A DNA stretch of 64,000 nt. Origin: an uncultured virus (IMG/VR IMGVR_UViG_3300000115_000013). Its lineage: Duplodnaviria > Heunggongvirae > Uroviricota > Caudoviricetes. The DNA is taken from positions 1 to 64,000 of IMG/VR virus record IMGVR_UViG_3300000115_000013. The stretch is one strand, 5' to 3'. Each line of letters starts with the position of its first letter. Positions within the stretch are counted from its first letter, which is position 1. The notes beneath the pieces were generated by a model, which was not told the origin of the DNA, did not search any database, and saw only the letters and a program-made list of their open reading frames with translations. The position numbers and the translations under genes are program-made. This document shows positions 2,914 through 59,688 of this stretch, one piece after another.

Positions 2914-3726
2914 TAGTTTTTTCTTTCCAGTTAGGATCATTTGCTCTAATGTTTGCTAACAGGTNNTGTCCTGCATCGCCTAATNCTGNTACTATAGCTT
3001 CTACNCTNCCCATGTCAACCGTGGTTTTGCNTTTGGACCNAATAATAANTGTGCAATTTTATTAATNTCNCTNGTAATAAATCCNTTNGGATCTTTTTTN
3101 CCGTTTGGTAAACGTTTAAANAANCCAACATAGTTACTCCACAGCATACCTTTTTCTCTAGCAATAATACTCAGCAGCTGATGCTTGTTAGTACCTTTGA
3201 AAGGACTGCCTTTTGGAATATTGTGTGTATGAAATTGTGCCGCATTGGCTGCATTAGGTACAACCATAACATCTGCTTGATATAAGTTACCTTTTACGTT
3301 AAGTCCAACATGAACAATAACACCAGTTTGTACTGTTTGAAATCCAGCTAAATCAAATAATTGTTTTAGCTTTTTTCTAATAACTCCATCAGTTTGGTCT
3401 TCCATCTTAAAGTGCTTTTTAAGATCATTAACATCAACAATTATGTCTATATCACCACTGGTCTCTCCGGGTATAGGAGTTGCGCCACTTCCAATGGGTA
3501 TGCCTGTGCTATTAGTTTTTGCTAGAACGCTGTTAATTATTTTTACCAAACTTGGCATAATTTCATGTGGTACTTCTAGTGAACCAGGTATTGCATTTTT
3601 TTCACTAAGACGTTTAATAGCATGTTTACCACTTTTAGCCAGTAAACTATTTCCATTGATTCTTACTTGGCGCTTGTTACGTATTTTACGTGACTTTTCG
3701 CCAACAATTATATCAGCTACTTTCAT
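2891..3726 (-). CDS. Pol-beta-superfamily nucleotidyltransferase; 3' part poorly sequenced
   Basis: IGSG...SGDIDIIVD motif and QADVM third Asp; many Ns. An alternative frame (DMGSVEAIV...NWKEKTNETAINP*) continues to 2891, implying a sequencing frameshift near 3020. Confidence 0.6.
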
Positions 3727-3962
3727 AATACTTTACCAATACCTCGTTGAAACTTACGTGGGTCTTTTGCTCTAATACTGTTAATTAAACGTTTGTTAAG
3801 GTCGTTAGCTGTTTCTTCGTCGAACGATTCATTTATTAAATCAATAAGATGTATTGCTGTACCAATTACTTGTTGTGCATTACTCTCAACAATTTGCTTC
3901 TTGTCACGCTTGGGTGACATAGAATTAATTTCTTCCAGTAAAGATCTAGTTTTTCTTTTCAT
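3723..3962 (-). CDS. Hypothetical protein
   Basis: 79-aa ORF with TAAATA upstream; overlaps the next gene (ATGA). Confidence 0.6.
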   Translation of the reverse strand: MKRKTRSLLEEINSMSPKRDKKQIVESNAQQVIGTAIHLIDLINESFDEETANDLNKRLINSIRAKDPRKFQRGIGKVL

Positions 3963-4000
3963 TGTAACACTATTTAGTTAAAGTTAAGTTAAATAAGTTT

Positions 4001-4170
4001 AGTTGAGGCATTGGTGATTAGCACTTATGGCAATTGCAGAAACTGGTATTAGAACATAGGATCCGTTAACGATAAGATTAATTCACCAACGCTTAAATTG
4101 GCCTACTACAGGTTAATAGTTCAGGACCACATATATAAAAGATAAGGTACACTGCACCTTTGCTTCAACA
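4001..4170 (+). ncRNA. Candidate structured late non-coding RNA
   Basis: TAAATA at 3990-3995; closing stem 4002-4010/4161-4169; internal helices 4011-4017/4083-4089, 4109-4139 and 4144-4160. Confidence 0.5.
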
Positions 4171-4572
4171 CTAAACTGCGTATTCAAAGTTTTGGCAAGT
4201 ATCACTTTTGCCAATTAACTTTGCACCATTACTAATATGAAAATGTTCCGCCATATCTGTTAATGGGCTTAATGTAACCAATTTTTTTACATGTTTTTCC
4301 TTTACTATACCCAATAAATTATTAACGATGGTTCTACCTGCACCTTTTTTACTACTCCATACGGTATATGCTACTGCAACCGTTCCAGTATCGTCACGAT
4401 ATTCTTCCAACTCTAACTCATTAGTTGGTATGTCCGTACAGTAGCATATACATATTACGGCTGTCAAGTCATCTAATACATATACTTGTTTACCTATGTC
4501 TATTTTATTAATATGAGGTCTTACTGGATCATTGTTAAGTAAATCTAGTTCAGTGTTGCTGATCAATCTCAT
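4171..4572 (-). CDS. Hypothetical protein, GNAT-like
   Basis: AYTVWSSKKGAGRTIV resembles the acetyl-CoA-binding motif A; HFHISNGAK resembles the C-terminal GNAT motif. Confidence 0.45.
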   Translation of the reverse strand: MRLISNTELDLLNNDPVRPHINKIDIGKQVYVLDDLTAVICICYCTDIPTNELELEEYRDDTGTVAVAYTVWSSKKGAGRTIVNNLLGIVKEKHVKKLVTLSPLTDMAEHFHISNGAKLIGKSDTCQNFEYAV

Positions 4573-4573
4573 A

Positions 4574-5968
4574 TTACTCGCTCTTTCTTAATAAACTTTT
4601 AAGTCTGTCAGTTGGATTTATTTGTGGATCAGCTGTCATATTATTTTCTGTTACGCTTTCTCCTGCTTCAATAGTTGATTTTGTTTTTAATTTTTGATAT
4701 ATGCTTGTAGTGTCACTATTTGGATCATCACGTTCACTTTCATCTAAATCCTGTATCCGTAAACTATCAATATTAAACGATAAATCTAGTTTACTACCAA
4801 CTCCACTACTACTACGTGTTTTCATAAATTGTATTTGTACTCTACCACGCTCTCGCATTGGCCTGCTACTAAAGATACCAATTAAGTTATCTGCTGTATT
4901 GATCTTACTAATACCTCCAGCAATATGGCTATGATCAAATTCAATCTCATCAACAGCACCACGGTTTAACTGTGATGCAGTTACAAATAATATGCCCAGC
5001 TCAGTTGCTAAATTGCGCAATTCTTCACTAACAAATTTATCTTTAATAAATTGATCGCTTGGATTAACTTTAACTGTAACTGGCATCATAAGATCCAAAT
5101 AGTCAACCAGTAGTGCATCAACATGCAAGTTGTGTTGTATCTGATATTCTCTCATGTATGCTTTGATGTCGTTAACAGTAGTACCATTCTTCATTTGTAT
5201 TACTTGTAGTTTACCTGCTTTCTTACTGGCCATCTTAACTTGTAACTCAACATCGCTACTATTCTTCATTACGTCTTTGGTGCTCATGCCTGTAAGCATA
5301 GCATCCAATCTCATAGCACACAGTTCTTCACTAAGTTCTAAACTGATGTACACAACGTTTTTACCTTGCAACGCCCAGTTTAGTGCTAAGTTCTGCATAA
5401 ACAAACTCTTACCACTACCACTACCACCTGCAAAGATGTTTAATTCGCCTGGATTAAATCCACCATACAATACTCTATCAAATGTCTCCCAGCCACTACT
5501 ATTCTGTCCTCTGTTGTCTTTGATGCTTTGAATGCGTCCTGCAGGATCATCCCAATAGTTTGTACCAAAGTTCTTAGCAAGTCCAATCTCTGTTGCCGCT
5601 TTGATGATGCCTTCTACTGTACCATACTCTTTGTTCTCTAACATATCAGCACTTTTTAGAATTGCTGCTTCCAACGCTTTGTGTCTACAGAACTGTTCAA
5701 AGTTATCCATAAACCAATTTTTATGTTCTGTGGTTAGTTTGTCTCGCACATCAGATATTTCAACACCAGCTACGCCTTTAACTTGCTCTAGCATGGGAAC
5801 ATCGTTGTATTCATCTGCATGTTTTTGTATAAAATCTACTGTGTCTCTGAATTGTCTGTCAAAGTAACTGCTTTCTAAGATAGCATTACACCGCACAAAC
5901 AGATCCTTGTCAGCCAATAAGAACTCCAAGTATAACTGTTGTAGGTCTGCGCTGTAATCTTCACTCAT
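4574..5968 (-). CDS. 41: DnaB-family replicative helicase (T4 gp41-like)
   Basis: Walker A GGSGSGKS, LLVDYLDLM, TASQLNR, MKTRSS. Confidence 0.93.
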   Translation of the reverse strand: MSEDYSADLQQLYLEFLLADKDLFVRCNAILESSYFDRQFRDTVDFIQKHADEYNDVPMLEQVKGVAGVEISDVRDKLTTEHKNWFMDNFEQFCRHKALEAAILKSADMLENKEYGTVEGIIKAATEIGLAKNFGTNYWDDPAGRIQSIKDNRGQNSSGWETFDRVLYGGFNPGELNIFAGGSGSGKSLFMQNLALNWALQGKNVVYISLELSEELCAMRLDAMLTGMSTKDVMKNSSDVELQVKMASKKAGKLQVIQMKNGTTVNDIKAYMREYQIQHNLHVDALLVDYLDLMMPVTVKVNPSDQFIKDKFVSEELRNLATELGILFVTASQLNRGAVDEIEFDHSHIAGGISKINTADNLIGIFSSRPMRERGRVQIQFMKTRSSSGVGSKLDLSFNIDSLRIQDLDESERDDPNSDTTSIYQKLKTKSTIEAGESVTENNMTADPQINPTDRLKSLLRKSE

Positions 5969-19701: not shown

Positions 19702-19777
19702 TGGTGCCGCAACCAAGATTCGAACTCGGGACCTACTGATTACAAATCAGTTGCTCTACCAACTGAGCTATTGCGGC
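19702..19777 (-). tRNA. tRNA-Thr(TGT)
   Basis: Cloverleaf; loop TTTGTAA; GTTCGAA T-loop; encoded CCA. Confidence 0.95.
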
Positions 19778-19778
19778 G

Positions 19779-19853
19779 TTATCGTTTTACTCTGCAATTA
19801 GGACAAAAATCGTTATGACCTAATTCTGTTTTACAATCTGGACAAGTTTTCAT
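19779..19853 (-). CDS. 24-aa zinc-ribbon micro-protein MKTCPDCKTELGHNDFCPNCRVKR
   Basis: Two CxxC motifs; TAAGTA-N5-ATG; fills the gap between two tRNAs. Confidence 0.6.
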   Translation of the reverse strand: MKTCPDCKTELGHNDFCPNCRVKR

Positions 19854-19878
19854 AAAAATACTTATCCGTGGGTTAATT

Positions 19879-19962
19879 TGGTACTCGCACCCGGACTCGA
19901 ACCGGGACGCCTTACGGCCACAGATTTTAAGTCTGTTATGTCTACCATTCCATCATGCGAGC
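19879..19962 (-). tRNA. tRNA-Leu(TAA)
   Basis: Loop CTTAAAA; long variable arm; A73; CCA. Confidence 0.93.
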
Positions 19963-19965
19963 ATC

Positions 19966-20055
19966 TGGCAGTGAGGGTGGGATTCGAACCCACGGAACGC
20001 TTGCACGTTCTCCGGATTAGTAATCCGGCGCTTTCGGCCACTCAGCCACCTCACC
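19966..20055 (-). tRNA. tRNA-Ser(ACT), unusual A34 anticodon
   Basis: Stem CCGGA/TCCGG; loop TTACTAA; long variable arm; G73; CCA. Confidence 0.88.
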
Positions 20056-20059
20056 TTAA

Positions 20060-20245
20060 CACTTGTAGGATTCAGGAAGGTCACTAGGTAATTACTCCTA
20101 TTAATTTCCAACGCCTGTCGAAGCTAGATATGACTATGCATAGATTTTAACTATCTAGTCTTCCGACGATTTTCCTACTGTACAAAGAACGTTGCAGTTT
20201 ACTCTTATCAGTTTATTCCTGCGGTGTTCTCTGCACCATAAACTT
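20060..20245 (-). ncRNA. Candidate structured RNA inside the tRNA cluster
   Basis: Nested helices 20065-20070/20173-20178 and 20117-20130/20152-20167, plus a 5' hairpin. Confidence 0.4.
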
Positions 20246-20319
20246 TGGCAAAGGTGAGGAGAATCGAACTCCTGCTTCTGGTTTTGGAGACCAGCGTGAT
20301 ACCATTTCACCACACCCTT
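20246..20319 (-). tRNA. tRNA-Trp(CCA)
   Basis: Loop CTCCAAA; G73; CCA. Confidence 0.93.
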
Positions 20320-20324
20320 ATAAT

Positions 20325-20401
20325 TGGTACTCCCCACAGGACTCGAACCTGTAACCAAAACGTTATGAGCGTTCTGCTCTAACCAATTGAGCTAGAAGAG
20401 T
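20325..20401 (-). tRNA. tRNA with CAT anticodon (Ile2-lysidine type or elongator Met)
   Basis: Loop CTCATAA; A73; C4-G69; resembles the ileX type; CCA. Confidence 0.88.
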
Positions 20402-20409
20402 ACATATTC

Positions 20410-20486
20410 TGGCGGACCCTAGAGGATTCGAACCTCTGACCTAGTGCTTAGAAGGCACTTGCTCTATCCAGCTGAGCTAAGGGACC
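20410..20486 (-). tRNA. tRNA-Arg(TCT)
   Basis: Loop CTTCTAA; A20; CCA. Confidence 0.93.
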
Positions 20487-22075: not shown

Positions 22076-22498
22076 TTAAAGTTTTTCTATTCTTTTTTCG
22101 TGTCTGCCACCTTCAAATTCTGTAGTGAGAAAGGTGTCAACTATGTTAATAATCCAAGCTGGATCAGTTACTCTAGCACCCAAACATAATACATTTGCAT
22201 TGTTATGCTGTCTTGTAAGCATTGCAGTATGTGTATCTTTACAAAGCCCTGCACGAATCTTTGGATTACGATTAGCTGTCATACTCATACCAATACCTGT
22301 GCCGCACACTAGGATACCAAAGCCTGCGCCGCCATCCGCTACAAGTTCACATACACCTTTAGCAAAGTCTGGGTAGTCACAACTTTCCTCACTATCACAA
22401 CCCCAATCTCGAACATTGTGTCCTTGGTCCATTAACCATTCACTAATTGCTTGTTTTGTTTTGTAACCTCCATGATCACTTGCTATTGTTATAATCAT
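22076..22498 (-). CDS. rpiB: Ribose-5-phosphate isomerase B
   Basis: ASDHGG, DYPDFA, CGTGIGMS, HNNANVLCLGAR, FEGGRH. Confidence 0.95.
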   Translation of the reverse strand: MIITIASDHGGYKTKQAISEWLMDQGHNVRDWGCDSEESCDYPDFAKGVCELVADGGAGFGILVCGTGIGMSMTANRNPKIRAGLCKDTHTAMLTRQHNNANVLCLGARVTDPAWIINIVDTFLTTEFEGGRHEKRIEKL

Positions 22499-32246: not shown

Positions 32247-32948
32247 CTAGTTTCTAACTAGGTTTTGTTGATTATGTTTTCTATCCATAAAGACTTTGGC
32301 AGTTTCTACTGCTACGGCTGCATCTCGACAGTAAGCATCAGCACCTATTGCTTTACCGAACTCTTCATTTAAAGGAGCTCCTCCAACTAATACTGTATAG
32401 TTGTCACGTATACCTTTCTCAGTCATTGTATCAATAACAACTTTCATATAAGGCATAGTAGTTGTAAGCAATGCACTCATTCCTAATATGTCTGGCTCAT
32501 GTTCGTCTATTGCATCGAGGTATGCATCAACTGAGTTGTTGATACCTAAGTCAACAACTTCAAAGCCGGCGCCTTCCATCATCATACCTACTAGGTTTTT
32601 ACCAATGTCGTGTATGTCACCTTTGACTGTGCCAATAACCATTTTGCCAACTTGTGGTGCGCCTGTTTCAGCAAGCAACGGTTTAAGTATTGCCATACCA
32701 CCCTTCATTGCGTTTGCTGCTAGTAGCACTTCGGGTACAAACAATATACCATCGCGAAAGTCTACACCTACAATAGTCATACCAGCAACTAACGACTTGG
32801 TTAGTACATCATAAGGTTCCCATCCACGCTGTAATAGAATGTTAGTGCCTTCTTCAACTTCTTCTCTGAGCCCATCGTATAGATCGTCGCCCATTTGAAA
32901 TACAAGTTCTTCGTCGTTTAGTTCTGCTAATACAATATCTTCTTCCAT
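32247..32948 (-). CDS. Stand-alone corrinoid (B12-binding) protein of split methionine synthase type
   Basis: Cap domain (FVPEVLLAA) plus GTVKGDIHDIGKN (DxHxxG), SALLTTT, VGGA. Confidence 0.92.
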   Translation of the reverse strand: MEEDIVLAELNDEELVFQMGDDLYDGLREEVEEGTNILLQRGWEPYDVLTKSLVAGMTIVGVDFRDGILFVPEVLLAANAMKGGMAILKPLLAETGAPQVGKMVIGTVKGDIHDIGKNLVGMMMEGAGFEVVDLGINNSVDAYLDAIDEHEPDILGMSALLTTTMPYMKVVIDTMTEKGIRDNYTVLVGGAPLNEEFGKAIGADAYCRDAAVAVETAKVFMDRKHNQQNLVRN

Positions 32949-52623: not shown

Positions 52624-53081
52624 TGATAAGTGCAAGTGGGTGTTGCTTCTTGGCCCTTGATACCGGAAGAATAATGCTACAACAAAGAAGTAAGACTAGC
52701 AGTCATCCGTTAACTTGGAGTTTCTGGGGAGGAAAGTCTGAAAAGAAAGAACGTCCTATTGAAACATTATTAAGGGAATGTAACGAAGAAATGGGAATAC
52801 TTCCTGATATTGAAAAAGTATATCCATTACATACTTTTCTTAGTGATGATAAAAAATTTACATATAATACATTCTGCATTACAGTATTTGAAGAGTTTAT
52901 TCCTGTATGCAATGGTGAAAGTAGTGGGTATGCATGGGTAGGTATACATGCTTGGCCTAAGCCATTACATCGTGGTGCTAGAGCTGTATTAGAACAACCT
53001 GATATGGTTGAGAAAATTACAACAATATATAATCGCCAAAAGGATAAACTAGACTTACCAAATTGGTTAGACAGTTTTTAA
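52623..53081 (+). CDS. NUDIX hydrolase
   Basis: Nudix box GGKSEKKE......RECNEEMG. Confidence 0.85.
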   Translation: MISASGCCFLALDTGRIMLQQRSKTSSHPLTWSFWGGKSEKKERPIETLLRECNEEMGILPDIEKVYPLHTFLSDDKKFTYNTFCITVFEEFIPVCNGESSGYAWVGIHAWPKPLHRGARAVLEQPDMVEKITTIYNRQKDKLDLPNWLDSF

Positions 53082-53749
53082 ACTTCTGGAAATAAACAAT
53101 CTTCAATAAAATGTTTAACGTCAGATGCATCAAGACCAAGTGATTCCATAACTTTAGGCGTATGTGGATTTTGTTTTTGATAATGACAATATCTATTTTG
53201 TCTACGTTTTATTTGATCTGCATCATTTTTAATATTAGTGTATTTAGGTAGATGTGTAAAATACATGTCTAGATTATCTAATGCCATTGTGACAACTTGG
53301 TCCATTTCTTGTATAGTTTTAACATTACTAACTGCTACCATATGTGGTGTAAATATAGCTTCTGCCCAAGGAGGCAGTGCTCTTTCCTTTTTCCATTCTA
53401 AATTTTTAGTAGATTCTGCAAATAAATCTATCATTGGATGTGACATTGGCCAGCTAGGGCTGTAGTCATGAAATGCTCCTGTTACTTTATTTTTACCACA
53501 AATTATATCAAATCCATATATCGGTGCCGTATTATTAAAATTAGGAAAAACACAGATATGAGTCATATACAACCCTTTTGTATCTCTTGCATCTACACTA
53601 TCTATATGAGCTCTTCTAAAATGGTCGCCTTTAAAAACCCTGTTAAGCCAATCAAACTCAGGGTCATCAAATGTTTCCTCACCCAACGTTGCACATTTTT
53701 TTATTATTTGTTGCTCACACTCTATCATTCTATCCCAAATTTCACTCAT
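53078..53749 (-). CDS. pcyX: Ferredoxin-dependent bilin reductase, PcyX-like
   Basis: [48 protein letters not shown]50/H64/D81 triad. Confidence 0.8.
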
Positions 53750-54932
53750 ATATTATACCTTTAAGTTTATCAGCTAAATCATTTATCATTGCATCTGTAT
53801 GAAACGGAGTTGGTGCAAACCGCAATCTTTCTGTGCCCATGTCCACTGTAGGATAATTAATTGCTTGCGCATATATATTATGATTTTCTATTAATTTATC
53901 ACTTATTGACTTGCACTTTATTGGATCATTAATCATAACTGGTACAATGTGTGTGTTATTTTCTAATACCTCGATTCCATTATTATGTAATGCTATTTTT
54001 AATTTTTTAACTATTTCTTGATGTTTGTTTCGTAATTCTATACCGTTTTCGCTACGCAAGTATTTTATGGCTGCTAATGCACCAGCACAGATTACAGGAC
54101 TTATACTAGTGGTGAAAATAAATCCACTTGCTACACTACGTATCGCATCTATAGCAACACCGTCTCCTGCAATATAACCGCCTTGGCAACCAAATGCTTT
54201 TCCTAATGTTCCATTAACAAAATCAACTCTGTCTTGTAGTCCTAGTTTTTCTAGATATCCTGCACCTTGTGCTCCGTATAAACCTACAGCATGCACTTCG
54301 TCAATATATGTTATTGCATTGTATTTGTCTGCTAAATCTAAAATAGCTTCAATTTCACTTACATACCCATCCATACTATACACACTTTCAAATACAATGC
54401 AAGGGGTACCTTTTATTGATTTTAAAATATCCTCTAATTCCTGTATATTATTATGTTGGAAAATATGTTTTGGGGAACCACTATGTCTTATACCAGCTAT
54501 TAAACTAGCGTGATTTTTACTATCACTTATAAACTCAATATTTTCTACAATTTTACTAAGTGCTATTAGGCTCCATTCATTTGCGACATATGCACTAGTA
54601 TACAGTAATGCACTGTTCTTTTTATGTAGACTAGCAATTTCATGTTCAAGTGCAACATGATAATGTGTGGTACCGCTTATATTACGTGTGCCGCCACTTC
54701 CAGCACCTGTTTGACTAAGAGCTGTATGCATCGCATCACTTACTACTTTATGTTGTCCCATACCTAAATAATCATTACTACACCAGTTTACAATATTTTT
54801 AATATTATATGGTCCATACCAAATAGCATTAGGATAATCACCACTTTCTCTTAATATGTCATTAAAAATGCGATAATTTCCAGACTGCTTTAGTTGATCA
54901 ATTTTATTTTGGAAGGTTTTTATGGGTATCAT
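53742..54932 (-). CDS. hemA: 5-aminolevulinate synthase (Shemin/C4 pathway)
   Basis: [38 protein letters not shown] (PLP Lys), [14 protein letters not shown]. Confidence 0.93.
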
Positions 54933-54966
54933 TTAGCACCGTTTCTTTTGTTATATTTAGTTTTAA

Positions 54967-54994
54967 TTGACTTGGCCTGATTTTATGTTATAAT
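54967..54994 (+). promoter_or_regulatory. Sigma70-type promoter of the heptose operon
   Basis: TTGACT-N16-TATAAT with extended TG; AGGAG SD follows. Confidence 0.6.
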
Positions 54995-55014
54995 ATGGTA
55001 AAAGGAGTTCTAAT

Positions 55015-55911
55015 ATGCATATTGTTACAGGTGCCAGTGGATTTATTGGTAGTAATATGGTACAACATTTAAACCGTATGGGACATAATGATATTTTATG
55101 TGTTGATACATTAAACAGTGAAAAAGTAAAAAATCTCCAAGGGCTCCAGTTCATTGATTTTATAAGTCCTAGTGAATTATTAACACAACAATTGGATGAT
55201 TGTACATTGTGGCATTTAGGTGCTAATAGTAAAACTAGCAGTGACGACTGGGAAAGCATTTACAATTCCAATGTGGTATATACTAGAAAGCTATTGAGTA
55301 AATTTAATGATGTAGTTTTTGCTAGTAGTGCTAGTGTGTATGGAGACAATACTGATACTTCAGAGCATCCTAATAATGAATCACCTAAAAATATGTATGC
55401 TGCTACTAAAATGATGTGTGATAATATGATCCGTTCCTCACAAAAAGGAAAGCGTCAGAGTTGGAGATTCTTTAATGTTTATGGTGACAGAGAATCACAT
55501 AAAATTAAAGTTCAACAAGCTAGTCCATACACTAACTTTACACATCAAGCAAAAACTACAGGAGTTATTAAACTATTTACTAATAGTAAAGATGTATTTC
55601 GCGACTTCATCTGTATTGACGATGTAGTGAGTATAATGTATGATGTGCATGAACGCACAGATAATAACTTTATTAGTAATTTAGGAACTGGGAAAGTGTT
55701 TAGTTTTCAGCAATGGGGAGAGTTATTGGCTAATAAGTATAATGCAGAAATAGAATATATCGAAATGCCAGACAGCCTTAAAAATATATATCAAATGTAT
55801 ACATGTAGTGATAATGAAAAACTAGGACATTTGCTAGATTATATTTGGGAGGATTTACGAGTACCATATCAGTTTTTAACACCAGAAGAATATATCGAGG
55901 ATAATTTATGA
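55015..55911 (+). CDS. hldD: ADP-L-glycero-D-manno-heptose 6-epimerase-like SDR
   Basis: IVTGASGFIGSN, HLGA, ASSASVYG, YAATK, RFFNVYG, RDFI. Confidence 0.8.
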   Translation: MHIVTGASGFIGSNMVQHLNRMGHNDILCVDTLNSEKVKNLQGLQFIDFISPSELLTQQLDDCTLWHLGANSKTSSDDWESIYNSNVVYTRKLLSKFNDVVFASSASVYGDNTDTSEHPNNESPKNMYAATKMMCDNMIRSSQKGKRQSWRFFNVYGDRESHKIKVQQASPYTNFTHQAKTTGVIKLFTNSKDVFRDFICIDDVVSIMYDVHERTDNNFISNLGTGKVFSFQQWGELLANKYNAEIEYIEMPDSLKNIYQMYTCSDNEKLGHLLDYIWEDLRVPYQFLTPEEYIEDNL

Positions 55912-57059
55912 AAGTATTAGTGTTTGGCGATGTAATCGTCGACAAATATATCTATGGTACTAGTACAAGAATTAGTCCAGAAGCACCTGTGCCTGTTGTG
56001 ACTTTTCAAGAAGAAAAAGAATCACTAGGCGGTGCAGGACTTGTGTATGAAAACCTAAAAAGTCTAGGCGTAGATGCAACACTACTTCAAACAGAACAGC
56101 CACGTAGTGTTAAGACTAGAATAATATGTGACGGGCATTATATTACACGTATAGATGATGATAAAGATGCAGATTCAAATGCAGTATTAGCAAATGTATT
56201 GCGTAGTGACTTCTCTCAATGGGATTATGTTATACTAAGTGATTACGACAAAGGTGTATTAGACAATGCAAAACAAATTATTGCACATATAAACAGCCAA
56301 GGTCCTAAAGTAATTGTAGATCCAAAACGATATGCACACGACTATGAAGGCGCTTGGTTAGTAAAGCCTAACAACAGCGAATATACTAAGTTTGAATTTG
56401 ACGAATGGCAGGGTAATATTATCACCACAGACGCAGGTCACAGCGTGAGTGCTACAATAGAAAATATCGAATATACTATTCCTGTAGAACAAGTCGAAGT
56501 ATCAGATGTTACTGGCGCTGGAGATTGTTTTCTAGCTGCGTTTGTGTATGCACTTACTAAAGGTTACAGTCATAAAAAATGTTTAGAGATAGCTGTTAGT
56601 GCAAGTACACAAAGTGTTAAGCACACTGGTACATATGTTTTAACTAAACAGGATGTAGAACGTACTAAAGTGTTTACCAATGGTTGCTTTGACATTGTAC
56701 ATCGAGGACATATTGAAATGCTCAAGGCTAGTAAACAATTGGGAGACTGGCTAGTAGTAGGGGTTAATACAGATCAAAGTGTTCGTCGTCTTAAAGGTGA
56801 ATCTAGACCTGTTAATAATGAAAGTGACAGAAAAGTTCTGCTGGAAAGTTTAGACTTTGTTGATGAAGTAATACTGTTTGACGAGGATACGCCACTGGAA
56901 TTAATACAACGTGTACAGCCAGACATAATTACCAAAGGCGGCGACTATACAGTAGACACAGTTGTAGGTAACCAACTTGCAAAAATTGTGATACTACCAA
57001 CTGTGGATGATTATAGCACAACAAATACAATACAAAGGATTAATAATGACACAACTTAA
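55908..57059 (+). CDS. hldE: Bifunctional heptose-7-P kinase/adenylyltransferase
   Basis: RISPEAPVPV, SDYDKG, DVTGAGD; FTNGCFDIVHRGH, KGESRP, KGGDY, STT. Confidence 0.92.
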   Translation: MKVLVFGDVIVDKYIYGTSTRISPEAPVPVVTFQEEKESLGGAGLVYENLKSLGVDATLLQTEQPRSVKTRIICDGHYITRIDDDKDADSNAVLANVLRSDFSQWDYVILSDYDKGVLDNAKQIIAHINSQGPKVIVDPKRYAHDYEGAWLVKPNNSEYTKFEFDEWQGNIITTDAGHSVSATIENIEYTIPVEQVEVSDVTGAGDCFLAAFVYALTKGYSHKKCLEIAVSASTQSVKHTGTYVLTKQDVERTKVFTNGCFDIVHRGHIEMLKASKQLGDWLVVGVNTDQSVRRLKGESRPVNNESDRKVLLESLDFVDEVILFDEDTPLELIQRVQPDIITKGGDYTVDTVVGNQLAKIVILPTVDDYSTTNTIQRINNDTT

Positions 57060-57411
57060 AGGCCAGCAAGATAAAGGATGGGGTCGAGAATTAATTTTTG
57101 CCACTAATGACAAATACTGTGGCAAAATAATGTTCTTTGACAAAAAGGGTGCTAAGTTTAGTATGCATTTTCATAAAGAAAAAGACGAAAGTTGGTATGT
57201 ACTTAATGGTAGTTTTACGCTACATATTATAGATACTGATACTGCTGAAATGGAAACACATGTTTTAACAAAGGGAGAAACATGGCGTAACGAACCACTA
57301 TTACCGCATCAGTTAATTGCAATGCAAGATAATAGTATTATTATTGAAGTTAGTACTCCAGATAGCGTAGAAGACAACTATCGAATTATCAAAGGTGATA
57401 GTCAAACATGA
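57046..57411 (+). CDS. Cupin-fold protein (sugar-isomerase-like)
   Basis: KGWGRE, SMHFHKEKDESWYV, PHQL, IEVST; start at 57046. Confidence 0.8.
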   Translation: MTQLKGQQDKGWGRELIFATNDKYCGKIMFFDKKGAKFSMHFHKEKDESWYVLNGSFTLHIIDTDTAEMETHVLTKGETWRNEPLLPHQLIAMQDNSIIIEVSTPDSVEDNYRIIKGDSQT

Positions 57412-58142
57412 GTAAGCTATGGACGTTTGGGGATAGTTTTGTTTCTCCAGTGAATAGATGTTATGATACAGAGCATTATCCAGAGTGGCATTGGGTTTAT
57501 CAGCTTGGAAAAAAACTTGGGGTGTCAGGATTGTCTGGTGCTGCATTACCAGGGGTAAGTAATGAATGGATTTCACATCAGATAATGCAAAACATTAATA
57601 ATATTAATAAGGATGATTTTATTGTTATTGTTACAACTGGTATGCATAGACGCTGGTTTATTAAAGATAAACCAACGTTATCCAATTTATATATTGTTAA
57701 CTTACATGAACATATGCCGCGAGATTCTTATCGTGCAATTGATCTTTACAAGCAAGAATTTAATGAACAGCATGAGTTTTTAAGTAAAATTTATTACGAA
57801 CAATTTTTAACATGGATACGCTCAGTATTAGAACCTTACCAATATTGTTTAATACCAGGATTTGATGCTACAACATTGCATCATACTTCAAATGACATAC
57901 CATTGGTAAAAGCTGATGAAGGCGAGTTTATTGATGGTTATGATAGAAAATTATTTGCAACATGGGAAGGTTGGGATAGGAGACTAAGTCATTTAAGTGA
58001 ATGCAATCACGATGTATTGTCAGATAAAATTACTAGATTTTTCAATACTAATGAACTAATAGATCTTAGCACTGAATTTAAGAAAAATTTATTTACTTGT
58101 AAGCAAGATTGTTTGGACTACAATTTAGATATCTCAATTTAA
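57408..58142 (+). CDS. SGNH/GDSL-like protein (paralogue of 20477-21340)
   Basis: LWTFGDSF, PGVSN, RRWFI, DRRLSHL. Confidence 0.55.
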   Translation: MSKLWTFGDSFVSPVNRCYDTEHYPEWHWVYQLGKKLGVSGLSGAALPGVSNEWISHQIMQNINNINKDDFIVIVTTGMHRRWFIKDKPTLSNLYIVNLHEHMPRDSYRAIDLYKQEFNEQHEFLSKIYYEQFLTWIRSVLEPYQYCLIPGFDATTLHHTSNDIPLVKADEGEFIDGYDRKLFATWEGWDRRLSHLSECNHDVLSDKITRFFNTNELIDLSTEFKKNLFTCKQDCLDYNLDISI

Positions 58143-59009
58143 TTACACGATAGAATCATAAGGAAACTTTCCTTCATATTTGCTACATCTAGGTTGTGCA
58201 GTACATTCTCTACAATGCGGTAATCTAATGTTTACACCATCTTTTGTAGTGTTGTTTCCGTCATATGCATATCCATTTGCATCCCATTGCATGTTATTTA
58301 CTTTGTGCATATGACCAACAGTCTTTACACTGTCCACAACTTTTTGATCAACTTCAGGATGGCAATTTTTATGCCAGTAACTTATTACACTTGGTATCTT
58401 CTTGCTGTCGTATTTGCCTTCTGGAGTAGTGCCAAAGAAAATAAAATTTTCACATGCACCACCATCTATCCATGCTTTACCATTCTTTTCATTAAAGTGA
58501 ATAGCACTAGCTGGGCAAGCATTTATACAATCATAACAATCTGTACATTTCTTCCACATATTGTATTGAATTTTTTTACCCTTATCAGGTATATTTGTAA
58601 TTTCTGTTTTGAACCCTACCATTGCAAAATGACAATCAAAACCAAATTTGTAACTGTATACTAATGTATTTCTTGCCCTTACTCCAAGTCCGCTTAGTAT
58701 AGCCGCTTCTTTATAGTTTGTATACATTGGGTACCAACTCATAATTTTGCTTTTTTTAATTGTGTTTATAATTTCGTCGTAAAAACTATAGTCCCAACTT
58801 TCTCCAAATTTGCACATAACAATGCCATGTGTAATATCAGGAAAATGAATACCGTTTGTGAAGTCTCTGCCAAATATATGGTACTTGCCTTTTACTGGTG
58901 AACTACTAGCTTGAAACGTATCTTCACGTGAAAGATATGCCATATCCCAAGTATCATCGAATAAACTTTTGAATTCTTCAAAGTCAACTGGCATATTTAG
59001 ATATCTCAA
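58143..59009 (-). CDS. QueG/reductive-dehalogenase-like 4Fe-4S protein
   Basis: KEAAILSGLG..ARNTL...KFG, CTDCYDCINACP, ...C...CREC....C. Confidence 0.65.
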   Translation of the reverse strand: MRYLNMPVDFEEFKSLFDDTWDMAYLSREDTFQASSSPVKGKYHIFGRDFTNGIHFPDITHGIVMCKFGESWDYSFYDEIINTIKKSKIMSWYPMYTNYKEAAILSGLGVRARNTLVYSYKFGFDCHFAMVGFKTEITNIPDKGKKIQYNMWKKCTDCYDCINACPASAIHFNEKNGKAWIDGGACENFIFFGTTPEGKYDSKKIPSVISYWHKNCHPEVDQKVVDSVKTVGHMHKVNNMQWDANGYAYDGNNTTKDGVNIRLPHCRECTAQPRCSKYEGKFPYDSIV

Positions 59010-59688
59010 TATAGTATACAGTATCTTTGTGTTCTATACTGTTACTAAAATTAGTTATATGTAGATTATTATTTGCTAACATATCACTAAATGTGTCTGG
59101 ATTGCTTCCTGTTACATTTTCCATAAGCATTATTTTACCATCATCTGTTAAATAATCATTGACGGTATCAAAAAAGTCTTGATGTATTTTCCAATCTAAA
59201 TCCTGCATTTTTCTCGGTTCATGTTCAGCTACTGTCAAGTCATCTCGCCAGGGTGGCACAGTAAAATTAAAATGAGGAGGATTTGCTATTATAAGATCAA
59301 ACTTTTGCTTAGGTATGCGTTTAAAATTATCAGACAGATAAAATTTGCAAGGTAAGTTATTTTGTTTAATTGTTTTTGTTATTACTTGTTGTGCATCTCT
59401 ACTGATATCACTAAAACTAATGTGTGTTGTTAATCCAGTTTGTAATGCAGCTAATCCAAAGTAGCCTGGTCCACAGCACCATTCTAACGCATTATAAAAT
59501 TGTCGTCCTTGCGAAAAATGATGAAAGCAACTATTTGCATCCTGTACTGTTAAGTATCCATATCCATCAGTATCATCGCTGCTGAATACAGTATAATTCC
59601 CTATATTAACTGAGGTTGTCGAGTTCAAAGTCAAACACAAATACCTTCTTATTTGTAGTGCATGGATACGCACCATGCCAAACATCAC
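58984..59688 (-). CDS. Class I SAM-dependent methyltransferase (HemK/MTS-like); start uncertain
   Basis: LEWCCGPG, SDIS, FDLIIANPPHF. Confidence 0.8.
   Translation of the reverse strand: MMFGMVRIHALQIRRYLCLTLNSTTSVNIGNYTVFSSDDTDGYGYLTVQDANSCFHHFSQGRQFYNALEWCCGPGYFGLAALQTGLTTHISFSDISRDAQQVITKTIKQNNLPCKFYLSDNFKRIPKQKFDLIIANPPHFNFTVPPWRDDLTVAEHEPRKMQDLDWKIHQDFFDTVNDYLTDDGKIMLMENVTGSNPDTFSDMLANNNLHITNFSNSIEHKDTVYYIEISKYAS

Follow-up and report, generated by a model that had tools for sequence, protein, structure and literature searches.

Introduction

An RNA that traps RNA polymerase as an open-promoter mimic is 6S RNA, presented in PMC8876501 and PMC3753640 as a regulator by which bacteria control their housekeeping holoenzyme. 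Its members (RF00013; E. coli 6S, B. subtilis 6S-1) share a common size of about 170-230 nt and a central bubble with strands of some 17 and 12-13 nt. Transcription on these RNAs is described as starting at U44 of E. coli 6S and at C40 of B. subtilis 6S-1, the latter with GTP (PMC8876501, PMC3753640), and a purine is described as favoured at position -1 of the template (PMC3753640). On the phage side, the account of the T4 late promoter in PMC7892883 has the late sigma factor gp55 flipping A-12, A-9 and A-8 into pockets.

Structured phage RNAs have been described as well. The ncRNA001 of Pseudomonas phage PA5oct is given as 236 nt long, at 2-5% of phage reads (PMC7318152), and Fremin et al. 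2023 list candidate structured RNAs from IMG/VR intergenic regions, with models of 29-151 nt (PMC10690425). The readable supplementary tables of the latter hold no motif match to the RNA described here, a fragment of which may stand unnamed among those models. No phage-encoded 6S-like RNA was among the matches listed in a full-text search, which covered few subscription papers. Here we describe a late-type non-coding RNA gene of uncultured aquatic jumbo phages, and compare its conserved architecture with that of 6S RNA and of the T4 late promoter.

Results

The RNA gene, its neighbours and its promoter

The window, that is, the whole stretch of 64,000 nucleotides analysed, covers the first 64 kb of a virus record, which is 74 kb long and about 20% complete. 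It encodes a tail sheath, a T4-type terminase, gp32, UvsX/UvsY-like proteins, a primase and a DnaB-like helicase; as judged from the helicase, the nearest cultured relatives are Pseudomonas phage PA5oct and its group, with 49% identity and a shared gene order. The RNA gene occupies a gap of 208 bp, flanked by two minus-strand genes that encode a 79-aa virion protein and a 133-aa protein (Table 1). Just as claimed in the initial annotation, its end falls 1 nt ahead of the stop of the latter gene, which is convergent with it. The 133-aa protein has no match in PHROG or Pfam, and its neighbours in the atlas are viral clusters that carry weak labels of malonyl-CoA decarboxylase or acetyltransferase (15-25% of members). 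Since the RNA is present without this gene in L041 and L063, and the gene without the RNA in L096-L121, the two are not tied to each other.

The start of the RNA had been placed at 4001 by measuring a fixed distance from a TAAATA hexamer at 3990-3995, and both the hexamer and the ruler hold. A purine is found at hexamer+6 in all 14 gene-leading TAAATA sites of the window vs 33 of the 64 others, and by this positional rule TAAATA behaves as a promoter in the window. The predicted +1 of the RNA is likewise a purine in 39/39 representative homologues, and TAAATA lies directly upstream of the RNA in 87 of the 88 distinct homologues. The initial annotation had not listed the late promoter motif of the virion gene (minus strand, 3976-3971), which stands back-to-back with that of the RNA, the two forming a cassette (3971-3995). 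A terminator-like hairpin at 4192-4214 (plus strand) lies inside the convergent gene, 22 nt beyond the closing stem, and from its sequence could end a precursor of the RNA.

Elsewhere in the window, auxiliary genes at 22076-22498, 32247-32948 and 53078-59688 encode a ribose/galactose isomerase, a B12-binding protein, a ferredoxin-dependent bilin reductase, an aminotransferase and a sugar-nucleotide cluster. Six tRNA genes lie at 19702-20486 (minus strand), one of them called as tRNA-Ser with the unusual anticodon ACT. The 18 N bases of the window cluster at 2940-3130, where they disturb the 3' end of a 241-aa ORF.

Table 1. Positions of the RNA gene, its predicted structural parts and its neighbours in the window.
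Feature	Position	Strand	Basis or remark
Flanking virion structural protein, 79 aa, phrog_11854	3723..3962	-	Family match
TAAATA, divergent late-type promoter of the gene for the virion protein	3971..3976	-	Back-to-back layout recurs in homologues
TAAATA hexamer, late-type promoter of the RNA gene (start predicted at 4001)	3990..3995	+	Ruler test; homologues
ncRNA gene	4001..4170	+	Conservation, covariation
Closing arm, 5' strand (4002-4010/4161-4169; 4013-4016/4155-4158)	4002..4016	+	Two-sided changes in 12/16 pairs (A2)
Bubble-adjacent helix, 5' strand (GC, bulged A, CUUAU)	4021..4028	+	Pairs with 4142-4148 (rod) or 4072-4076 (Y)
Central bubble, 5' strand, 15 nt in the window's fold	4029..4043	+	16-17 nt in 37/39 aligned rows
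Far-side helix, 5' strand; partner 4119-4129	4044..4055	+	3/8 counted pairs with two-sided changes
Hairpin 4064-4067/4088-4091	4064..4091	+	3/5 pairs with two-sided changes
Apical hairpin, variable part of the family; interior 21-68 nt	4096..4117	+	0-4 short AGGCU-like repeats
Central bubble, 3' strand, 12 nt, AU-rich	4130..4141	+	12-14 nt in 38/39; late-promoter-like hexamer first
Closing arm, 3' strand	4142..4169	+	Alternative hairpin 4144-4160 possible in Y fold
Flanking convergent gene, 133 aa, weak acetyltransferase-fold lead	4171..4572	-	Atlas lead only
DnaB-like (gp41-type) helicase, locus anchor	4574..5968	-	Family match

Homologues and their distribution

Loci were gathered with the virion protein, the 133-aa protein, four IMG/VR helicase queries, one GTDB helicase query and three DNA patterns. 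By HMM the RNA was found in 342 of the 717 loci, many of which are repeat pulls of identical contigs, and 93 distinct full-length sequences passed the motif filter; L708, the most divergent homologue, fails the filter and is additional. The RNA is 170 nt long in the window and about 190-230 nt in most homologues. All 93 sequences fall in one helicase clade of uncultured aquatic jumbo phages. In a helicase tree of 60 rows (quick search) the RNA is confined to one branch (SH-aLRT 95), made up of 36 carriers and one non-carrier, L430, which has a clean 27-bp gap in its place. In relatives outside this branch the leftward slot is empty or filled by swappable small convergent genes that encode a class 3 lipase, a DUF1353 protein or an unknown protein of 111-114 aa. 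The search of a complete 352-kb relative (G233) with R1, a model of the RNA, gave no match. Confined to one branch, missing from L430 and from relatives outside the branch, the RNA is, as read from these genomes, an accessory gene, and its distribution is consistent with a single gain.

Among metagenome-scan loci 50/76 are true homologues, and the first viral pattern-scan matches were mostly false positives on sorting. The R1 search over 63 loci gave one true match (L486) together with its reverse strand, and a match at L465 was rejected as it lies inside an ORF; over five long contigs only G236, already in the clade, was hit, and over five distant genomes including PA5oct only short hairpin matches were obtained. 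With the element as query, blastn returned only 8 short chance matches in 50,697 phage records. Homologue L486 sits in a gammaproteobacterial MAG, which may reflect misbinning. At L420:3882-4086 the orientation of the RNA is reversed, with an inverted copy of the helicase end at its flank and the promoter absent, and this inversion is probably an assembly artefact.

Strand and conserved fold of the RNA

Two folds of the RNA have to be weighed. In the three-hairpin fold of the initial annotation (Y), an internal segment is the partner of the 5' arm; in the other (rod), that partner is the 3' end, which gives a closing arm, a central bubble, a short helix and a branched tip. The 9-bp closing stem claimed at 4002-4010/4161-4169, with one G-U pair, is present in the sequence. 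Y is indeed the single-sequence MFE of the window's RNA (-39.1 kcal/mol), but it is only modestly below shuffles (z -2.24; 6/200 shuffles as low) and the minus strand folds equally well (z -2.62), so that folding alone neither chooses the strand nor much exceeds chance.

The homologues were therefore compared in alignment A2, which holds 39 representatives of <92% identity aligned by MAFFT and not fitted to a structure, and from which L040 (mis-cut end), L420 (inversion) and L001 (a near-copy of the window) were left out. The named pairs in A2 contain 126 G-U vs 6 A-C cells, by which the RNA is assigned to the plus strand. The strand that had been read from a single G-U pair is thus fixed, by the homologues.

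As a conserved structure the rod is preferred. RNAalifold with 27 homologues picks the rod, in which CUUAU is paired with the distal strand. Pairs found only in the rod have two-sided changes in 11/26, matched by 0/500 shuffles, vs 3/19 for pairs found only in Y, matched by 171/500 shuffles; both folds were counted on one alignment, the rod was named after the sequences had been viewed, and the counts are inflated and not independent, since the rows of A2 are related. The invariant CUUAU helix has no two-sided change, and because its five pairs never vary in A2, covariation cannot directly choose their partner. The energies of rod and Y lie within 2 kcal/mol of each other in 25/39 lineages; the rod is lower in 25/39, with a range of -6.9 to +3.3, and it is always lower in the lineages with a gap of >3.3 kcal/mol (7/39). 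For the window's own RNA, RNAfold favours Y by 2.6 kcal/mol (P rod 0.02), and in L708, where the closing-arm loop is paired, neither named fold dominates (P rod 0.11). The internal segment is complementary to the 5' arm in 86/93 sequences (-6 kcal/mol or better), which argues that most lineages retain Y as a second, nearly equal state. The rod is very probably the working fold, and the Y fold is probably a minor, alternative conformation.

Within hairpin 4064-4091, the loop and 3' strand hold a near-copy of the product RNA predicted from the bubble (AUAAG at 4072-4076), which follows that product from its fourth base onward. UAAGA in this loop is invariant across 17 diverse rows including L708. 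The AGGCU-like apical repeats expand and contract among lineages (L041, L063, L038), with 2 repeats in 24/39, and are a possible protein-binding array; compared with the conserved '-35-like' apical element of proteobacterial 6S, they loosely resemble the AAGCCU block of alignment A3, a likeness that is non-significant in profile comparison. Polymerase binding does not account for the conserved AUAAGA loop and the AGGCU-like repeats, which may leave room for another protein partner.

The central bubble

The bubble has fixed lengths while the apical loop ranges over 21-68 nt, and its conserved bases stand at defined positions. The 5' strand begins R-G-C-A, with G4030-C4031 invariant and A4032 in 38/39; the third unpaired base is C and the next a purine, both in 39/39. 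From its position match to E. coli U44, we infer that C4031 is the predicted template start. In the 3' strand, A is found at position 2 (A4131) in 39/39, and the strand reads N-A-N-N-U-A in 32/39 vs 3 expected from composition. U follows three bases past the invariant A in 35/39 phage RNAs, and likewise in 22/22 gammaproteobacterial 6S bubbles.

Numbered as in T4, the 3' bubble strand carries A-12 in 38/39, A-10 in 39/39, A-8 in 30/39, U-7 in 35/39 and A-6 in 32/39, with A-9, the gp55 pocket adenine, retained in only 10/39. At most two mismatches to ATAAATA are found in 31/39 phage bubbles, vs 4-5 mismatches in bacterial 6S (ACCUG/ACUUG). In L708, found after the 6S idea had been noted, the 3' bubble opens with an exact UAAAUA. 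In these AU-rich RNAs an equally good match to the late box occurs at about 6% of positions, and in E. coli 6S the mutation of A131 or U135 is described as barely altering binding (PMC8876501); the bubble sequence is for these reasons a weak guide to the sigma factor.

Of the two GGCA motifs noted in the initial annotation, both are present in the window and only that of the bubble is kept in homologues (as RGCA). The protein sponge based on them is unsupported, as the sole conserved GGCA sits at the predicted template start.

Late sigma factor and expression

Members of a gp55-like family, phrog_12791, are encoded by PA5oct, by two related IMG/VR genomes and by another contig of the MAG that holds L486. 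The MAG protein (L553:1507-2385) is 292 aa long, with a long insert vs T4 gp55 (185 aa), and has no Pfam sigma domains; inside this bacterial MAG its gene precedes one that resembles gp47/SbcD by eye. A search of 8 RNA-clade fragments, with a completeness of 14-37% each, gave no gp55-like sigma, and a search of four fragments gave no sigma70 region 2.

Four metatranscriptomes with small word shares gave the relatives' virion gene only, and such contigs show presence, not absence. In X1 and X2, apparently one data set, a single contig spans the whole region at flat depth, and in the metatranscriptome contigs the RNA is not enriched over its flanks. X3 holds a 189-nt contig of an L011-type homologue that lies wholly inside the RNA and ends two bases past 4167; this end near the predicted 3' end, from one run at a flank-like depth of 4.5, is a weak hint.

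The view of the RNA as a late and presumably discrete ncRNA without a known family is sustained by conservation, covariation in relatives, strand asymmetry, the promoter motif and Rfam. That it is a real phage ncRNA gene we hold to be almost certain.

Comparison with known RNA families

In Rfam (gathering; E<=10) the RNA has no RF00013 match and nothing relevant otherwise, and this clade-specific RNA is, as judged by these searches, without an Rfam family. The window's own record has no RF00013 match either; RF00013 itself was detected in only 4-5/14 control genomes. The R1 search against 50 bacterial 6S loci gave 0 matches, and profile-profile comparison gave z 0.8 (gamma) and 1.9 (alpha) vs 8.3 for the gamma-alpha positive control. 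By-eye motif likenesses to bacterial 6S (CAACGGCA, CUU..AG) failed this profile test. By these comparisons the RNA is not a demonstrable 6S homologue; it may act like 6S by convergence, or have diverged beyond detection.

Y RNAs (YrlA/YrlB) are marked by a Ro60-binding bulged helix, and in Rfam the RNA has no match to them. Several other identities were tried and rejected. For tRNA or tmRNA, ARAGORN and Rfam find only the six tRNAs (19.7-20.5 kb) and none at the RNA, and a tRNA-like T-loop is contradicted by the GUUC stretch, which is paired with covariation. A small peptide or tmRNA tag has no conserved frame: the 10-codon ORF noticed from 4027 is present in the window and unconserved in homologues (AUG in 81/93, 5-57 codons). 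A CsrB/RsmZ-type sponge does not agree with 1-5 GGA per RNA (2 in 23/39), with the lack of a hairpin array or with the lack of an Rfam match. PA5oct ncRNA001 was rejected as a homologue, since no credible R1 match was obtained there or in the PA5oct genome; the gap between helicase and virion gene is absent from PA5oct, unlike the RNA clade.

Discussion

A model for the function of the RNA

The best reading of these data, to which we give about an even chance, is a late phage ncRNA that acts as a 6S-like open-promoter mimic, possibly of one of the phage's own late promoters, and traps RNA polymerase; among the functions listed in the initial annotation, that of a decoy is the best. Given polymerase binding, the gp55-type holoenzyme would be slightly the more probable target, and the sigma70 holoenzyme would have a chance a little below even. 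In this model the phage late holoenzyme, host core with a gp55-type sigma, would transcribe the RNA from 4001. The rod would then enter the polymerase cleft, with the 3' bubble strand in place of the non-template strand and C4031 as template +1, and the bound polymerase would stay idle until nucleotide levels permit a short product RNA starting pppG-C. As in 6S, this product would open the CUUAU helix and free the polymerase. The internal near-copy could pair with the template strand, giving the bubble-less Y fold as an off state or a folding intermediate; it could displace the product RNA and recycle the RNA, or merely hold the 5' arm during synthesis. The net effect would be a feedback brake or store that couples late transcription to the nucleotide supply of the host.

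The whole of this picture, a phage's own 6S that mimics an open late promoter, traps the gp55-type holoenzyme, is released by its product RNA, resets itself by its built-in copy and, as a nutrient sensor, holds back virion production when its marine hosts starve, is tentative, and we consider it unlikely to be right in every part. If true, a phage 6S would be a new control of host polymerase by an RNA decoy rather than by a protein. If tuned to a gp55-type sigma, it would mean that promoter mimics made of RNA can also serve an alternative sigma that lacks region 4, and it would provide a testable mechanism for the pausing of late development in nutrient-poor hosts.

Alternative explanations

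Another reading, which we consider unlikely at about the level of the full model above, makes the RNA a late RNP scaffold or sponge that offers its AUAAGA loop and AGGCU-like motifs to an RNA-binding protein of phage or host, for example a defence sensor. The bubble would then have nothing to do with polymerase and would serve as a flexible hinge or an AU-rich site for binding. This agrees with the invariance of the UAAGA loop, with the 0-4 apical repeats and with the lack of 6S homology; it does not predict fixed bubble lengths with variable sequence, nor the precise coincidence of conserved bases with the start and -10 sites of 6S, and it meets a repeat array that is nearly lost in the window's RNA and L397-type RNAs, besides the scarcity of GGA. 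A two-state switch or antisense regulator with Y as the working form, triggered by a ligand, a protein or a target RNA, is improbable. It draws on the persistence of the Y-only helices (86-94% paired), on the pairing of the 5' arm with its internal copy, on the near-equal energies in most lineages and on the window's own MFE. Against this reading stand the Y-only covariation, which is no greater than in shuffles, the absence of the outer Y helix from L298, L315 and L345, the advantage of the rod by 3.4-6.9 kcal/mol in L298, L397, L401, L408, L417 and L447, and the lack of a regulated gene downstream on the plus strand.

Very improbable is a minus-strand terminator or attenuator that closes the primase-helicase operon ahead of the late virion operon: both neighbours are on the minus strand, which folds as well as the plus strand, and hairpin 4160-4144 is terminator-like with a U-rich tail, but the G-U count points to the plus strand, two-sided changes are found in 0/5 pairs of this hairpin, which the L041 group lacks, a plus-strand promoter motif with purine start is conserved, and L430 is cleanly without the element. 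Phage T4 has transcription-primed origins, oriF and oriG, with an R-loop primer, and the adjoining helicase gene, the promoter and an AT-rich tract might suggest such an origin here, with the RNA as R-loop primer. We regard this as scarcely probable, since the late-type promoter, the paired RNA ends and the extensive covariation misfit a persistent RNA-DNA hybrid, and in relatives the slot has either no gene or small ones, for example lipase genes. The prohead RNA of phi29 is an essential motor part in phi29-like phages, and a virion or packaging RNA of this kind would suit the similar size, the branched tip and the late-type promoter back-to-back with a virion gene; it is just as remote, as the phage has a T4-type large terminase, no Rfam match was obtained, and an essential motor part is hard to reconcile with an RNA missing from L430 and the complete relative G233. 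A phi29-type prohead RNA as such was rejected on the same terminase, Rfam and L430 evidence.

Comparison with the T4 late promoter and 6S RNA

Measured against the T4 late promoter open complex as given in PMC7892883 and PMC2988020, the 3'-bubble consensus of the phage RNA matches TATAAATA at 6/8 modal positions. The likeness includes the pocket bases A-12 and A-8, correctly spaced from the downstream helix. Unlike the T4 late promoter, the phage element is RNA, and A-9 is found in a minority of rows; the related sigma (gp55-like, phrog_12791) is longer than that of T4, at about 290 aa.

The resemblance to 6S RNA is one of architecture. Both are rods with an internal-loop closing arm, a central bubble and a helical arm beyond, and the bubble of 17 + 12 nt in E. 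coli 6S (taken from its fold, with the sequence from annotation) compares with 16-17 + 12-14 nt in the phage RNAs; in both the third base of the 5' bubble strand is a pyrimidine followed by a purine, and A-N-N-U opens the 3' bubble. Unlike 6S, the RNA is phage-encoded with a T4-type late promoter motif in front, its tip is branched and not linear, and its 3' bubble is AU-rich and late-promoter-like in place of ACCUG. E. coli 6S has a closing arm some 12 nt longer than that of the phage RNAs (predicted template C of the latter at position 30 in 31/39 vs 44), and the release hairpin that gammaproteobacterial 6S has in its 3' bubble is missing from the phage RNA, which, unlike 6S, carries a near-copy of its own predicted product RNA.
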